A stretch of DNA of 64,000 nucleotides from assembly GCF_003334305.1 (NCBI RefSeq), contig NZ_QOWS01000006.1. One strand, given 5' to 3'. This DNA is from Escherichia coli (GTDB lineage: Bacteria > Pseudomonadota > Gammaproteobacteria > Enterobacterales > Enterobacteriaceae). Under the pieces are notes generated by a model, which saw nothing but the letters and a program-made list of their open reading frames with translations, was not told the DNA's origin and made no database searches. The position numbers and the translations under genes are program-made. This document shows, in pieces, positions 18,502-62,724 of this stretch (its first letter is position 1; every line of letters begins with the position of its first letter).

Positions 18502-19299
18502 ATGCAGGAATACACGAATCATTCCGATACCACTTTTGCACTGCGTAATATCTCCTTTCGTGTGCCCGGGCGCACGCTTTTGCATCCGCTGTCGTTAACC
18601 TTTCCTGCCGGGAAAGTGACCGGTCTGATCGGTCACAACGGTTCTGGTAAATCCACTCTGCTCAAAATGCTTGGCCGTCATCAGCCTCCGACGGAAGGGG
18701 AGATTCTTCTTGATACCCAGCCGCTGGAAAGCTGGAGCAGCAAAGCGTTCGCCCGCAAAGTGGCTTATTTGCCGCAGCAGCTTCCTCCGGCAGAAGGGTT
18801 GACCGTGCGTGAACTGGTGGCGATTGGTCGTTACCCGTGGCATGGCGCGCTGGGGCGCTTTGGGGCGGCAGATCGCGAAAAAGTCGAGGAAGCTATCTCG
18901 CTGGTTGGCTTAAAACCGCTGGCGCATCGGCTGGTCGATAGTCTCTCTGGCGGCGAACGTCAACGGGCGTGGATCGCCATGCTGGTGGCGCAGGATAGCC
19001 GTTGTCTGTTGCTCGACGAACCGACTTCGGCGCTGGATATCGCCCACCAGGTTGATGTGCTGGCGCTGGTGCACCGTTTAAGTCAGGAACGTGGCCTGAC
19101 GGTCATTGCCGTGCTGCACGATATCAATATGGCGGCACGCTACTGTGATTATCTGGTCGCCCTGCGCGGTGGTGAAATGATTGCTCAGGGAACGCCTGCG
19201 GAAATTATGCGCGGCGAAACCCTCGAAATGATTTATGGCATCCCGATGGGTATTTTGCCGCATCCGGCGGGTGCTGCACCTGTGAGTTTTGTTTATTGA
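18502..19299 (+). CDS. fhuC: ferric hydroxamate ABC transporter ATP-binding protein
   Basis: Starts MQEYTNHSDTTFALRN; Walker A GHNGSGKST, ABC signature LSGGERQR; 265 aa. Confidence 0.9.
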   Translation: MQEYTNHSDTTFALRNISFRVPGRTLLHPLSLTFPAGKVTGLIGHNGSGKSTLLKMLGRHQPPTEGEILLDTQPLESWSSKAFARKVAYLPQQLPPAEGLTVRELVAIGRYPWHGALGRFGAADREKVEEAISLVGLKPLAHRLVDSLSGGERQRAWIAMLVAQDSRCLLLDEPTSALDIAHQVDVLALVHRLSQERGLTVIAVLHDINMAARYCDYLVALRGGEMIAQGTPAEIMRGETLEMIYGIPMGILPHPAGAAPVSFVY

Positions 19300-20189
19300 T
19301 GAGCGGCTTACCTCTTATTTCGCGCCGTCGACTGTTAACGGCGATGGCGCTTTCTCCGTTGTTATGGCAGATGAATACCGCCCACGCGGCGGCTATTGAC
19401 CCCAATCGTATTGTGGCGCTGGAGTGGTTGCCGGTGGAATTACTGCTGGCGCTCGGCATCGTGCCTTACGGCGTGGCGGATACCATCAACTATCGCCTGT
19501 GGGTCAGCGAACCACCATTGCCGGACTCAGTGATTGACGTCGGTTTGCGTACAGAACCTAACCTTGAACTGCTGACCGAAATGAAACCGTCGTTTATGGT
19601 CTGGTCGGCAGGATATGGCCCTTCATCAGAAATGCTGGCACGTATTGCGCCGGGTCGCGGATTTAACTTCAGTGACGGCAAACAGCCGTTGGCGATGGCG
19701 CGTAAATCGCTGACGGAAATGGCAGATTTACTTAACCTGCAAAGCGCAGCGGAAACGCATTTAGCGCAATACGAAGACTTTATCCGCAGCATGAAACCCC
19801 GCTTTGTGAAGCGTGGTGCACGCCCGTTACTGCTGACGACGCTTATCGATCCGCGCCATATGCTGGTCTTCGGTCCAAACAGCTTGTTCCAGGAAATTCT
19901 CGATGAGTACGGCATCCCAAATGCCTGGCAAGGGGAAACCAACTTCTGGGGCAGTACCGCCGTCAGTATCGATCGTCTGGCGGCGTATAAAGACGTTGAT
20001 GTGCTCTGTTTTGATCACGACAACAGCAAAGACATGGATGCGCTAATGGCAACCCCGCTGTGGCAGGCCATGCCGTTTGTCCGCGCCGGACGCTTTCAGC
20101 GCGTACCCGCAGTCTGGTTTTATGGTGCGACGCTCTCGGCAATGCACTTTGTGCGCGTTCTGGATAACGCCATCGGAGGTAAAGCGTGA
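19299..20189 (+). CDS. fhuD: ferric hydroxamate periplasmic binding protein
   Basis: ATG overlaps the fhuC stop (ATGA); 296 aa, signal peptide MSGLPLISRRRLLTAMALSPLLWQMNTAHA. Confidence 0.9.
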   Translation: MSGLPLISRRRLLTAMALSPLLWQMNTAHAAAIDPNRIVALEWLPVELLLALGIVPYGVADTINYRLWVSEPPLPDSVIDVGLRTEPNLELLTEMKPSFMVWSAGYGPSSEMLARIAPGRGFNFSDGKQPLAMARKSLTEMADLLNLQSAAETHLAQYEDFIRSMKPRFVKRGARPLLLTTLIDPRHMLVFGPNSLFQEILDEYGIPNAWQGETNFWGSTAVSIDRLAAYKDVDVLCFDHDNSKDMDALMATPLWQAMPFVRAGRFQRVPAVWFYGATLSAMHFVRVLDNAIGGKA

Positions 20190-25210: not shown

Positions 25211-25555
25211 ATGAGTGATGACGTAGCACTGCCGCTGGAGTTTACCGACGCAGCAGCCAACAAAGTTAAAAGCCTGATCGCTGACGAAGATAACCCGAAT
25301 CTGAAATTACGCGTGTATATCACCGGTGGCGGTTGCAGCGGCTTCCAGTATGGTTTCACCTTTGATGATCAGGTGAACGAAGGCGATATGACCATCGAAA
25401 AACAGGGCGTTGGCCTGGTGGTTGATCCGATGAGCCTGCAATATCTGGTCGGCGGTTCCGTTGACTATACCGAAGGACTGGAAGGTTCTCGTTTCATCGT
25501 GACCAACCCGAACGCGAAAAGCACCTGCGGTTGCGGTTCTTCCTTTAGCATCTAA
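25211..25555 (+). CDS. erpA: iron-sulfur cluster insertion protein (A-type carrier)
   Basis: Track ORF over-extended; real start [11 protein letters not shown] at 25211 with Shine-Dalgarno GGAG; C-terminal CGCGSSF motif; 114 aa. Confidence 0.9.
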
Positions 25556-26262: not shown

Positions 26263-27063
26263 CTAATCTACCTGTGAAAGCGCATTACAGAGCTGTTGTG
26301 CAGCGAGGATAATACGTGGGCTTGCACGTTCAAACCAGTCACTCGTGAGAGGAATAACGGGAATTTTGAGCTGTTCACCCCAGTATTGTTTGATTTTAGG
26401 AATTTGGTCCGGTCCGCCTGTAATGACAATCGCCTGTGGCGAGCGTGCTAACACCTGTTCGCGGCTAACTTGCGGCCAGGGAACCCGGCTGTCTTTAAAG
26501 ATGTTTTCTCCGCCACAAACTTCGAGTACCTGGTTCTGAATCGACTCTTTTCCACTGGTAAATGGCGGATTAATGCCGAATTGCAGAAAAACACGTTTTT
26601 TAGGTTTATCAGCATATTGCGCTTTCAATTGCGCGTACTGATCCAGCAGGGATTGCGCGGCTTGTTCGGCCTTGTCTGGTTGCGGACTCCAGGGGGCCAG
26701 TTGACGTAACGCATTGGCAATTTGTTCAATGCTTGTCGCATCGACCCACATCACTTTTATTCCCAGCGAAGCCAGCTGGTCAACCTGCCGCTCGGCATTA
26801 CCTCCACGCCAGGCAATCACCAGATCGGGTTTCAGCGCGACAATGCGTTCCAGATTCATCCCCTGCCAGGTGGAAACCTGCTCAATCTTTTGCGCTTGTG
26901 GAGGATAGTCGGAATAGCTGCTGACCCCAACCGGCGTGATCCCGGCGGCAAAGGCAAGTTCAGTGTTGGCGGGAGAAAGCGTGATGACGCGCGGCGCGGC
27001 GTTGAGCCACAGTGGCGCAAGAAAAGACAGGGCGACCAGCGCCCTGAACAGTGACTTAGCCAT
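26263..27063 (-). CDS. btuF: vitamin B12 periplasmic binding protein
   Basis: Track ORF 275 aa; BtuF starts [22 protein letters not shown] (266 aa); its start overlaps the mtn 3' end by 8 nt. Confidence 0.85.
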
Positions 27064-27754
27064 GTGCAAGTTTCTGCACCAGTGACTCAACCATCAGGCT
27101 GGACTGTTTAGCGGCAACAGCCAGGAACTCATCGAAGCTAAGATGAGACTGTTGATCGGCCACGTCGGAGATGGCGCGTACGACAACAAACGGGACGTTG
27201 AAATTGTGGCAGACATGGGCGATTGCCGTCGCTTCCATCTCTACAGCAATGGCCTGTGGGAAGTTGTGGCGGATTTTCGCCAGACCAACAGAACCGTTGA
27301 TGAAAGCGTCGCCGCTAACAATCAGGCCACGTACAGCGTTAAGATTCAGTTCGGCAATGCAGGCCTCAGCGGCAGCGATCAGTTTATCGTCAGCTTTAAA
27401 GCCTGCCGGACAGCCTGGTAACTGACCGTATTCATAACCAAATGCCGTGACATCCGCGTCGTGATAACGTGCTTCGTCCGAGACAACGATATCGCCCACT
27501 TTCAGCGTTGGTGCCAGGCCACCGGCAGAACCGGTGTTAATAATCACATCTGGCTTGCAGTGTTCCAACAGCAGAGTGGCACCCAGCGCCGCAGCGACTT
27601 TACCGATGCCCGATTTCAGAAGCGCAACCTCGGTTCCATTCAGTTGGCCGGTATAGATTTCGCAACCGCCGAGACTGATAGTTTGACGGTTTTCGATTTT
27701 GTCACGCAGCAGCGTAACTTCTTCTTCCATTGCACCAATGATGCCGATTTTCAT
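27056..27754 (-). CDS. mtnN: 5'-methylthioadenosine/S-adenosylhomocysteine nucleosidase
   Basis: 232-aa [23 protein letters not shown]... recognised as Mtn/Pfs. Confidence 0.9.
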
Positions 27755-50447: not shown

Positions 50448-51236
50448 GTGATTGATAAATCCGCCTTTGTGCATCCAACCGCCATTGTGGAAGAGGGCGC
50501 GTCAATTGGCGCGAACGCACACATTGGTCCTTTTTGTATCGTTGGACCCCATGTCGAAATTGGTGAGGGTACCGTACTGAAATCTCACGTTGTCGTGAAT
50601 GGTCATACTAAAATTGGCCGCGATAATGAGATTTATCAGTTCGCCTCCATCGGCGAAGTTAACCAGGATCTGAAATATGCTGGCGAACCGACCCGTGTGG
50701 AAATCGGCGATCGTAACCGCATTCGCGAAAGCGTCACCATTCATCGTGGCACAGTCCAGGGCGGTGGATTGACGAAGGTGGGCAGCGACAACTTACTGAT
50801 GATCAACGCGCACATTGCGCACGATTGTACGGTAGGTAACCGCTGTATTCTCGCCAACAACGCAACGCTGGCGGGTCACGTATCGGTTGACGACTTCGCG
50901 ATCATCGGCGGCATGACCGCAGTCCATCAGTTCTGCATCATTGGTGCGCACGTGATGGTTGGCGGCTGCTCCGGTGTGGCGCAGGACGTCCCTCCTTATG
51001 TCATTGCGCAGGGTAACCACGCAACGCCGTTCGGTGTCAATATCGAAGGGCTGAAGCGCCGCGGATTCAGCCGTGAGGCGATTACCGCTATCCGCAATGC
51101 GTATAAGCTGATTTATCGTAGCGGTAAAACGCTCGATGAAGTGAAACCGGAAATTGCTGAACTGGCGGAAACATATCCGGAAGTGAAAGCCTTTACCGAT
51201 TTCTTTGCACGCTCAACGCGCGGTCTGATTCGTTAA
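50448..51236 (+). CDS. lpxA: UDP-N-acetylglucosamine O-acyltransferase
   Basis: 262-aa ORF, GTG start; hexapeptide-repeat protein. Confidence 0.9.
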
Positions 51237-52384
51237 TGACTGAACAGCGTCCATTAACGATTGCCCTGGTCGCCGGAGAAACCTCCGGCGATATCCTGGG
51301 GGCCGGTTTAATCCGCGCTCTGAAAGAACGTGTGCCCAACGCCCGCTTTGTTGGTGTTGCCGGGCCACGAATGCAGGCTGAAGGCTGCGAAGCCTGGTAC
51401 GAAATGGAAGAACTGGCGGTAATGGGCATTGTTGAAGTGCTCGGTCGTCTGCGTCGCTTACTGCATATTCGTGCCGATCTGACAAAGCGTTTTGGCGAAC
51501 TGAAGCCAGATGTTTTTGTTGGTATTGATGCGCCCGACTTCAATATTACTCTTGAAGGTAACCTCAAAAAGCAGGGTATCAAAACCATTCATTACGTCAG
51601 TCCATCCGTCTGGGCGTGGCGACAGAAACGCGTTTTCAAAATAGGCAGAGCCACCGATCTGGTGCTCGCATTTCTGCCTTTCGAAAAAGCGTTTTATGAC
51701 AAATACAATGTACCGTGCCGCTTTATCGGTCATACCATGGCTGATGCCATGCCGTTAGATCCAGATAAAAATGCCGCCCGTGATGTGCTGGGGATCCCTC
51801 ACGATGCCCACTGCCTGGCGTTGCTACCGGGGAGCCGTGGCGCAGAAGTTGAAATGCTTAGTGCCGATTTCCTGAAAACGGCCCAGCTTTTGCGCCAGAC
51901 ATATCCGGATCTCGAAATCGTGGTGCCACTGGTGAATGCCAAACGCCGCGAGCAGTTTGAACGCATCAAAGCTGAAGTCGCGCCAGACCTTTCAGTTCAT
52001 TTGCTGGATGGGATGGGCCGTGAGGCGATGGTCGCCAGCGATGCGGCGCTACTGGCGTCGGGTACGGCAGCCCTGGAGTGTATGCTGGCGAAATGCCCGA
52101 TGGTGGTGGGATATCGCATGAAGCCTTTTACCTTCTGGTTGGCGAAGCGGCTGGTGAAAACTGATTATGTCTCGCTGCCAAATCTGCTGGCGGGCAGAGA
52201 GTTAGTCAAAGAATTATTGCAGGAAGAGTGTGAGCCGCAAAAACTGGCTGCGGCGCTGTTACCGCTGTTGGCGAACGGGAAAACCAGCCACGCGATGCAC
52301 GATACCTTCCGTGAACTGCATCAGCAGATCCGCTGCAATGCCGATGAGCAGGCGGCACAAGCCGTTCTGGAGTTAGCACAATGA
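51236..52384 (+). CDS. lpxB: lipid-A-disaccharide synthase
   Basis: 382-aa ORF; start overlaps the lpxA stop (TAATG). Confidence 0.9.
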
Positions 52385-61565: not shown

Positions 61566-61820
61566 TCAGGACTCGCTCACCACCACCGTACCGATTTCCG
61601 GGTGGCTAAAGCTGGTAATTTTATCCAGACGTAGCTCACGGGTTTCGCCAGCGGCCTCGACGACCAGATACTCCACATTTTTGCGGGAGACTAAATCGCT
61701 GGCTTTTGCCTGCAATTTTTCGCCATCTTTCAGCTCAAGTGTCAGCATTAAATGATGCTGGCAGGCGAGCTCAAGATTATCGTAATCATCACAATTGATT
61801 GGTTGATACGTATCATTCAT
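61566..61820 (-). CDS. rof: Rho-binding anti-terminator Rof
   Basis: 84-aa protein [23 protein letters not shown]...; alternative start at 61826. Confidence 0.8.
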
Positions 61821-62013
61821 TGACATAATCGCTCACCAGTAAGTTTGCCGCAGCGTATGCTGCTTTTTCCCTGACAGCCTCAGAAAGGGCGTCGTCGGCA
61901 GCCATTTCATTCAGCACTTTCAAAACGCAGCCCAGCGCGTCCGGAACGTATCCTAAGTCTCCGCTGGCGATTTCCGCGTACCGCTTGCGTATTAACTCAC
62001 AATATTTTTCCAC
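61813..62013 (-). CDS. yaeP: UPF0253 small protein
   Basis: 66-aa protein (M)[21 protein letters not shown]...; probable GTG start; overlaps the rof start by 8 nt. Confidence 0.7.
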
Positions 62014-62178: not shown

Positions 62179-62724
62179 ATGGCGCTTAAAGCGACAATTT
62201 ATAAAGCGACGGTTAATGTGGCCGATCTCGACCGCAACCAGTTTCTCGATGCCTCTCTGACGCTGGCGCGCCACCCTTCAGAAACCCAGGAGCGTATGAT
62301 GCTGCGCTTGCTGGCGTGGCTGAAATATGCTGATGAACGTCTGCAATTTACCCGTGGTTTGTGTGCCGATGATGAGCCGGAAGCGTGGCTGCGTAACGAT
62401 CACCTGGGCATTGATTTGTGGATTGAGCTGGGGCTGCCGGATGAGCGGCGGATTAAGAAAGCCTGCACCCAGGCCGCAGAAGTGGCGCTGTTTACCTATA
62501 ATAGTCGGGCGGCGCAAATCTGGTGGCAGCAAAATCAGAGCAAATGTGTGCAGTTTGCCAATCTTTCCGTCTGGTATCTGGACGATGAACAACTGGCGAA
62601 AGTAAGCGCCTTTGCCGATCGTACCATGACGCTGCAGGCAACGATTCAGGATGGCGTGATCTGGTTATCGGACGATAAGAATAATCTGGAAGTTAACTTA
62701 ACCGCCTGGCAACAACCTTCATGA
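62179..62724 (+). CDS. yaeQ: YaeQ family protein
   Basis: 181-aa [25 protein letters not shown]... recognised as YaeQ. Confidence 0.8.

Follow-up and report, generated by a model that had tools for sequence, protein, structure and literature searches.

Gene organization at the mtn/btuF junction

The DNA analyzed here is a stretch of 64,000 nucleotides (nt) of the Escherichia coli chromosome (contig NZ_QOWS01000006.1, assembly GCF_003334305.1), which is called the window in the following and extends from the yad fimbrial genes (yadK) to nlpE. Two of its genes, mtn (mtnN/pfs) and btuF, overlap at their ends on the minus strand. The coding sequence of mtn (27056..27754, 232 amino acids) is an intact open reading frame (ORF) that agrees with the RefSeq annotation and terminates with the TAA codon at 27058..27056. 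btuF (26263..27063, 266 amino acids) begins with the ATG at 27063..27061, and the N-terminus of its product is a signal peptide. A preliminary description of the window had placed the start of btuF 8 nt inside the 3′ end of mtn, between positions 27050 and 27070. Inspection of the sequence confirmed this, the overlap ATGGCTAA being located at 27056..27063 and comprising both the start codon of btuF and the stop codon of mtn (spacing -8). Read on the minus strand, the mtn frame ends with CAG AAA CTT GCA CAT GGC TAA, while the btuF frame opens with ATG GCT AAG TCA.

Downstream of the overlap, two hairpins lie within the 5′ coding region of btuF. The first one, H1 (CAGGGCG-CTGGT-CGCCCTG, 27028..27046, minus strand, btuF nt 18-36), falls into codons 6-12 and is separated from the mtn stop codon by 9 nt. 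It comprises 7 base pairs, six of them G-C, has a free energy of approximately -13 kcal/mol, was recorded as terminator-like by a simple terminator scan and is also present in the minimum free energy fold. It is followed by the U-rich tail TCTTTTCTTG (27018..27027, minus strand), which holds the RNA 3′ ends determined in E. coli K-12 by Term-seq. The second hairpin, H2 (TGTGGC-TCAAC-GCCGCG, 26995..27011, minus strand, btuF nt 53-69), covers the signal-peptidase cleavage region. The preliminary description missed the conserved hairpin with its mapped RNA 3′ end directly behind the mtn/btuF junction.

The arrangement of the genes is not peculiar to this isolate. The whole window is colinear with strain ECC-1470 (NZ_CP010344.1, 155342-219341), from which it differs by 255 substitutions and no indels, so that RefSeq gene coordinates can be transferred directly. 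A 2-kb query around mtn/btuF was matched at >=95% identity in 5425 of 5426 complete E. coli genomes, and the genes annotated under the match are btuF, mtnN, yadS and dgt.

Conservation of the overlap

Conservation of the junction was studied in 80 mtn loci of species-representative genomes, 58 from Enterobacterales and 22 from Bacillales. In 57 of the 58 enterobacterial loci btuF follows mtn directly; near mtn of the 22 Bacillales loci no btuF was found. The -8 geometry occurs in 46 of the 57 Enterobacterales species in the form of NTGNNTAA, or, in one of them, of NTGNNTAG. Other spacings are -11 (three species), -1 as TAATG (two Yersinia species), +1 (Serratia oryzae), +6 (one metagenome-assembled genome) and +72 (Providencia). 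The btuF start could be resolved in 54 of the 57 loci and remained unresolved in three. Where it was resolved, the spacing lies between -11 and +6 in 53 loci, and mtn stops with TAA in 50.

The start codon of btuF is ATG in Escherichia, Citrobacter and Pluralibacter and GTG in Enterobacter, Kosakonia, Raoultella, Buttiauxella and other genera. Altogether, GTG is used by 31 of the 49 species whose junction is of the -8 or -11 type. In most species the penultimate mtn codon 231, CAT (His) or CGT (Arg), covaries with the ATG or GTG start of btuF. Moreover, the -8 start throughout yields a canonical signal peptide consisting of M-x-K/N/R, a hydrophobic core and A-A-P-R-V. The sole Enterobacteriaceae locus without an NTG codon at -8 is that of Mangrovibacter yixingensis (L023, ~3690..3760), in which mtn ends with CAG GGT TAA and hairpin H1 is also missing. 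Candidates for the btuF start of this species are a TTG at -14, a TTG at +28 and an ATG at +49.

The mtn/btuF overlap is hence a long-lived native feature. The statement of the preliminary description that such overlaps are native operon features and not frameshifts was borne out, as the ORFs are intact, RefSeq agrees and the mtn/btuF geometry recurs in 46 of 57 species. Its persistence can, however, also be explained by purifying selection acting separately on the stop codon of mtn and the start codon of btuF. As selection on each gene end suffices, conservation alone is no proof of selection for coupling.

Hairpins in the 5′ coding region of btuF

A hairpin starting at btuF nt ~17-20 is present in nearly all of 48 Enterobacteriaceae species, yet its sequence differs between genera. 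The stems corresponding to H1 are GGCGCGG/CCGCGCU in Buttiauxella, CAGCGCGC/GCGCGCUG in Shimwellia and Entomohabitans, GGGCGCC/GGGCGCCC in Klebsiella sp. BIGb0407 and GGCGCAG/CUGCGCC in Cedecea. The stability of this region was compared in each of the 48 species with the species' own synonymous recodings. When codons were permuted synonymously over the whole gene, btuF codons 4-28 gave a mean z of -2.67, with negative values in 48 of 48 species and values below -1.64 in 79%, while four control segments deeper in btuF gave mean z values from -0.49 to +0.09. Permutation of codons within the tested segment alone, by which the composition is kept fixed, resulted in a mean z of -2.14 (100% of the species below 0; controls -0.16 to -0.06). 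Both hairpins contribute: z was -1.89 for codons 4-15, which contain H1, and -2.43 for codons 16-29, which contain H2 and were below 0 in 96% of the species. Codons 30-43 did not reveal any excess stability (z +0.31). Since no excess structure was detected in the signal-peptide regions of fhuA, degP, skp, yadN and nlpE of the window, the signal is not a general property of such regions. These data show selection at synonymous sites for two hairpins in btuF.

Several further results concern this region. The species are related to each other and their z-scores are not independent. RNAalifold did not return a consensus structure for a 49-sequence alignment of the junction, and the column-wise covariation of H1 and H2 was weak (score 0.148 compared to 0.146 at slide -3, with 82.9% paired cells). 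The latter two results are partly due to a shift of the hairpin register by 1 nt between genera. Rfam families matched the mtn/btuF junction only at chance level, a 110-nt segment folded around the start of btuF did not significantly exceed dinucleotide shuffles in stability (z = -1.02), and a small hairpin just 5′ of the btuF ATG was not conserved, even within E. coli.

An RNA 3′ end within btuF

In the K-12 Term-seq data of Adams et al. 2021 (PMC7815308), RNA 3′ ends on the minus strand were reported at MG1655 positions 178423 (LB, optical density 0.4; 45,780 reads) and 178421 (another condition; 58,856 reads), and rows for btuF are present under all three growth conditions (supplementary files 1 and 3). 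The authors classified the end as primary for mtn and as internal for btuF, at a distance of 39 nt from the start of the latter. The published 61-mer matches window positions 27074..27014 exactly, by which the two ends correspond to positions 27024 and 27022. The mapped RNAs thus end with CGCCCUG-UCUU and CGCCCUG-UCUUUU, 4 and 6 nt past the H1 stem, i.e. within the U-tract and 39-41 nt past the btuF start codon. The Rho score of the site, 1.37, is not significant; the site is marked 'No' and was not assigned to a Rho region (PMC7815308). Thus, a discrete, Rho-independent 3′ end exists at H1 in K-12. It has already been present, without interpretation, in this public data set; in the main text of the study the site at 178423/178421 is not discussed.

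Because a hairpin with a mapped 3′ end follows their junction, mtn and btuF do not simply form a single expression unit. Probably, the junction also functions in partial termination or in the protection of an mRNA end, by which the amount of btuF-yadS mRNA is reduced relative to mtn. Whatever the origin of the 3′ end, RNA containing only mtn would be more abundant than mtn-btuF-yadS RNA.

An observation in Providencia vermicola (L056, ~3694..3765) touches on the same question. Its 72-nt spacer between mtn and btuF consists of an A-tract, a 17-base-pair A+T-rich hairpin and a U-tract, and resembles a bidirectional terminator. The element was missed by the simple terminator scan because its stem is A+T-rich and holds too few G-C pairs. 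From the content of this spacer one may suppose that the conserved function is an RNA end located between the two genes, which the overlap in Enterobacteriaceae forces into the coding sequence of btuF.

Translational coupling of btuF to mtn

Together, several lines of evidence indicate that mtn and btuF share one mRNA. In the literature the operon is given as mtn-btuF-yadS, and a Salmonella pfs insertion, as cited in PMC11837498, abolishes B12 uptake. The polar effect reported there shows that the genes are co-transcribed, so that btuF depends on upstream expression. In addition, RNA coverage continues past the junction, and a scan of the minus strand inside mtn did not reveal any promoter-like site.

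As to translation, spacings enriched in prokaryotes are -4, -1 and, less strongly, -8 (PMC12548453). A stop-to-start distance from -8 to +10 nt has been taken as predictive of termination-reinitiation (PMC10666635), a range to which the mtn/btuF spacing belongs. The btuF gene of E. coli is not preceded by a Shine-Dalgarno (SD) sequence; the best match is a GGUG 13 nt upstream (-2.8 kcal/mol). An SD sequence is likewise absent from all 49 species with a -8 or -11 junction, in which pairing with the anti-SD sequence, scored at a spacing of 3-11 nt, was never stronger than -3.0 kcal/mol. Moreover, of five native E. coli overlaps that have been tested, four were coupled (PMC6728339, Huber et al. 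2019). On these grounds, the translational coupling which the preliminary description had read from the overlaps is plausible for btuF and mtn, and of the two readings we regard it as the more likely one. For mtn a translation efficiency of 1.6 has been published; btuF is absent from the table (Burkhardt et al. 2017).

Some points argue in the opposite direction. An overlap of -8 is the minimal one possible in its phase and supports reinitiation less well than the shorter overlaps -4 and -1 (PMC10666635). In the literature, no published coupling test was found for any of the nine overlapping gene pairs of the window. The remaining one of the five native overlaps tested, bioBF, was not coupled and initiates de novo (PMC6728339).

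Weighing of alternative explanations

The simplest objections concern the overlap as such. If the btuF start were mis-annotated, the true start being the TTG at 27090 or a codon further downstream, the 8-nt overlap would be an artefact. The longest ORF in the btuF frame indeed starts at this TTG, and the mature protein, which loses its N-terminus together with the signal peptide, does not disclose the start codon. However, the TTG, at -35, is missing in about half of the species while an ATG or GTG at -8 or -11 exists in 49 of 57, the -8 start provides every species with a canonical signal peptide, and after codon 1 of E. coli btuF no further in-frame start occurs before the cleavage site. Mis-annotation was therefore rejected and is very improbable. 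Still more remote is a frameshift, be it a sequencing error or a programmed event that produces an Mtn-BtuF fusion, for which nothing speaks beyond the change of frame at the junction. Both ORFs have full length and match their families from end to end, and the sequence is identical in thousands of genomes. A programmed site was dismissed since CAGAAACTTGCACATGGCTAA does not contain a slippery heptamer and the frame is not conserved. The position of btuF relative to mtn varies by species (-8, -11, -1, +1, +6 and +72), which rules out a conserved fusion product. More weight has to be given to the view that the overlaps simply result from genome compaction and from purifying selection on gene ends, btuF being initiated weakly and without coupling by free 30S subunits. 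The example of bioBF fits this view, as do the tightly spaced E. coli gene pairs, 69.6% of which do not encode partners of a complex (PMC10666635). Since Mtn and BtuF reside in different compartments, no stoichiometry has to be maintained. In Providencia, where 72 nt separate both genes, the SD sequence is also weak (-3.2 kcal/mol), so weak initiation of btuF seems to be tolerated. Finally, the loss of a stop or start codon is harmful in itself, by which the geometry could be retained without any selection for coupling. On the other hand, independent initiation is difficult to reconcile with 49 species lacking an SD sequence, 31 of them with a weak GTG start, and with a structured 5′ coding region that should disfavour the entry of free 30S subunits. 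The range of spacings, -11 to +6 in 53 of 54 resolved loci, and the coupling of four of the five overlaps tested (PMC6728339) also contradict it. We therefore consider uncoupled translation unlikely, though worth keeping in mind.

A more serious rival exists for the origin of the 3′ end. The end at H1 may be the stable product of 3′-to-5′ exonuclease decay or of endonuclease cleavage, stalled by the hairpin, in which case H1 and H2 could be an element stabilizing mtn mRNA or might have a translational or export-related role in btuF. Term-seq itself cannot separate termination from processing. Against termination speak the intrinsic-terminator score of the site, which at 2.32 falls below the authors' cut-off of 3.0, and the direct RNA-seq coverage, which is 106 upstream and 75 downstream of the 3′ end (PMC7815308), a drop of only ~30%. 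In addition, the U-tract behind H1 (UCUUUUCUUG) is interrupted by a C, and outside Escherichia the tail contains 4.6 U residues of 9 compared to a synonymous expectation of 4.14. The hairpin is kept even in genera with U-poor tails, e.g. CTCCTGCTG and GCTGCTCTT, and the likewise conserved H2 has neither a U-tract nor a mapped 3′ end. Processing is, however, less well compatible with the position of the ends, which fall into UCUUUU at distances of 4 and 6 nt from the stem, the geometry of an intrinsic terminator. Nor is the 3′ end Rho-dependent, and its read counts resemble those which the same table gives for bona fide terminators, e.g. fldA with 47,785 reads. Moreover, at the corresponding site of Providencia an element is present which looks like a canonical terminator. 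We take processing for a real contender which, on balance, we do not expect to be correct.

Proposed mechanism

Considering all data, we slightly favour an account in which genuine overlaps are combined with a partial ending of transcripts at H1 and with termination-reinitiation on btuF. Transcription would begin upstream of mtn. The hairpin H1 together with UCUUUUCUU, 9 nt past the mtn stop in the signal-peptide codons of btuF, would then end a large share of the transcripts, presumably because transcription partly terminates there without Rho or because 3′ exonucleases are stopped by the hairpin. This would result in an abundant mRNA comprising only mtn and in fewer read-through mtn-btuF-yadS mRNAs. 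On the latter, btuF may be translated mainly by ribosomes which have just terminated at the mtn TAA and reinitiate at the btuF start, 5 nt upstream of this codon. Reinitiation is inferred from the lack of an SD sequence, the GTG start in most genera and the structured 5′ coding region. Both features together would hold the periplasmic B12-binding protein BtuF low relative to the cytoplasmic enzyme Mtn.

It is conceivable, if rather doubtful, that the junction is a compact translation-sensitive attenuator. A ribosome following RNA polymerase closely or reinitiating on btuF would prevent formation of the hairpin and thereby permit read-through, while uncoupled transcription would terminate. Judging from geometry, a ribosome with the mtn stop codon in its A site would cover the RNA up to about the first base of H1, and the 3′ end would be ~35 nt away from the codon in the P site when this ribosome terminates on mtn. 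Speculatively, ribosomes reinitiating on the truncated RNA would run off after 13 codons, which would favour a weak initiation of btuF.

Comparison with known systems

The coupled overlaps studied in 2019 (PMC6728339) have much in common with those described here, namely the same spacing classes, the same strand, a geometry conserved across genera and a downstream start within reach of the terminating ribosome. They differ in that coupling was measured there, while the nine pairs of the window are known from their sequence, and in that Mtn and BtuF, by contrast, are not subunits of one complex. Another difference is that removal of the SD sequence diminished reinitiation in four of the five pairs tested (PMC6728339), whereas btuF does not possess any.

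The 3′ end at H1 can be compared to the intra-operon partial intrinsic terminators and ORF-internal Term-seq ends of Adams et al. 2021. Common features are a G+C-rich hairpin followed by a U-rich stretch and a discrete Rho-independent end in vivo with large read-through, which would reduce the expression of the distal gene. Unlike those, H1 is contained completely in the codons for the signal peptide of the following gene, 9 nt past an overlapping stop and start, is kept by the choice of synonymous sites and has a score below the authors' cut-off. There is also a similarity to stabilizing hairpins between cistrons, e.g. the repetitive extragenic palindromic (REP) elements of malE-malF, which shield the upstream mRNA against 3′ exonucleases. 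Here, too, a hairpin just past the upstream gene is associated with abundant RNA of this gene alone and with differential expression within the operon. However, H1 is not a REP sequence, is not intergenic and does not match any Rfam family.

Other overlapping junctions of the window

Besides mtn/btuF, the preliminary description had listed further overlaps, all of which proved to be real. Of 48 pairs of neighbouring genes that share a strand in the window, nine overlap and another ten are spaced by 3-16 nt. The genes named at the junctions are intact ORFs in the window and are annotated alike in RefSeq. While the conservation across lineages was examined for mtn/btuF, the remaining eight junctions were compared with the RefSeq annotation. 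The spacings are -1 (two pairs), -4 (four pairs), -8 (two pairs) and, for one pair, -14 or -8, and all nine belong to the short co-directional overlaps of the -1/-4/-8 class. The junctions listed are thus genuine start/stop overlaps of co-directional, co-transcribed genes in three standard spacing classes. They are already known and represent standard operon architecture that is annotated in every E. coli genome.

The sequence motifs given in the preliminary description were correct for pcnB/folK (ATGA, 4 nt, -4; 6453..6456, minus strand), lpxA/lpxB (TAATG, 51234..51238, plus strand, with a 1-nt overlap, -1, at 51236) and lpxB/rnhB (ATGA, -4; 52381..52384, plus strand). At fhuC/fhuD (19297..19301, plus strand), to which ATGA had also been assigned, this string does occur, but fhuC does not stop with the TGA contained in it. 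The genes are in fact joined by TGATG with a 1-nt overlap (-1), the stop being TGA 19297..19299 and the start ATG 19299..19301. The overlaps of fhuD/fhuB (GTGA, 4 nt, -4; 20186..20189, plus strand), which is preceded by a strong SD sequence (GGAGGT), and of yaeQ/arfB (ATGA, -4; 62721..62724, plus strand) were confirmed. That of yaeP/rof exists as well, but its size, 14 or 8 nt, varies with the start assigned to rof. With the start chosen by the Prokaryotic Genome Annotation Pipeline (PGAP), Rof has 86 amino acids (MSMND...) and the overlap is ATGTCAATGAATGA (14 nt; 61813..61826, minus strand), whereas the K-12 protein of 84 amino acids (MND...) leaves an overlap of 8 nt, ATGAATGA. The K-12 gene (b0189) comprises 255 nt and is entered with 254 in the tables of Burkhardt et al. 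2017. One pair was lacking in the list, yadW/erpA with the 8-nt overlap ATGAGTGA (-8; 25211..25218, plus strand), in which yadW codes for a small protein of 21 amino acids. erpA has an SD sequence of its own (GGAGC, -5.6 kcal/mol). The strength of SD sequences did not clearly differ between overlapping and non-overlapping pairs of the window (-4.5 and -5.4 kcal/mol; n = 9 and 39).

Further observations in the window

The 5′ coding regions of genes in the window were compared by z-scores calculated from this single genome. Codons 4-28 of genes located downstream of overlaps or gaps of <=16 nt were more structured than synonymous shuffles (mean z -0.97, n = 19), while those of 35 other genes were less structured (mean z +0.46; p = 0.0008, Mann-Whitney test). 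Downstream genes of tight junctions account for all of the top seven structured regions, namely folK (-3.96), lpxD (-2.64), rseP (-2.59), yadM (-2.39), rnhB (-2.08), btuF (-2.08) and lpxB (-2.02). The strongest signal is that of folK codons 4-28 (~6373..6447, minus strand). More broadly, genes downstream of tight junctions might in general be marked by an excess of 5′ coding structure.

Within the region, the strongest K-12 Term-seq 3′ end listed is that at MG1655 160097 with 3.1 million reads, which corresponds to window positions ~8807..8830 (minus strand) in the dksA-gluQRS spacer. It lies in a hairpin and U-tract, ...GGCGGGAAATGCTCCCGCCTTATTTTTT, finishing a few nt 5′ of the gluQRS start annotated by PGAP. 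With the terminator hairpin of dksA just 5′ of it, gluQRS must rely on read-through of this terminator.

Two genes show irregular codons. htrE, encoding the Yad fimbrial usher (1543..4143, minus strand), contains a premature TAG at codon 830 of 866 (1654..1656). Of the eight best complete E. coli matches listed, seven differ by one base. Only the sequence of strain A7, which comes from an orangutan (NZ_CP028767.1), matches exactly, and here PGAP annotates htrE as a pseudogene with an internal stop. The annotated start codon of pcnB is the non-canonical ATT (7848..7850, minus strand), a known case of AUU initiation.

Implications

For genome annotation, the overlaps of the window should not be flagged as frameshifts. 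From a short overlap, however, it does not follow that two genes form a single expression unit. A large share of the transcripts at mtn/btuF ends 39-41 nt past the btuF start codon, which calls for caution in assuming such an expression. If H1 proves to terminate part of the transcripts, it would clearly exemplify a regulatory RNA element kept purely by synonymous codons in a signal-peptide region, and would explain how a periplasmic binding protein of low abundance shares a promoter with a housekeeping enzyme. Should the junction even act as an attenuator, overlap and hairpin would set the expression of btuF-yadS by the tightness with which translation and transcription of mtn are coupled, through an element which lies wholly in synonymous sites of a signal peptide and is conserved across Enterobacteriaceae.

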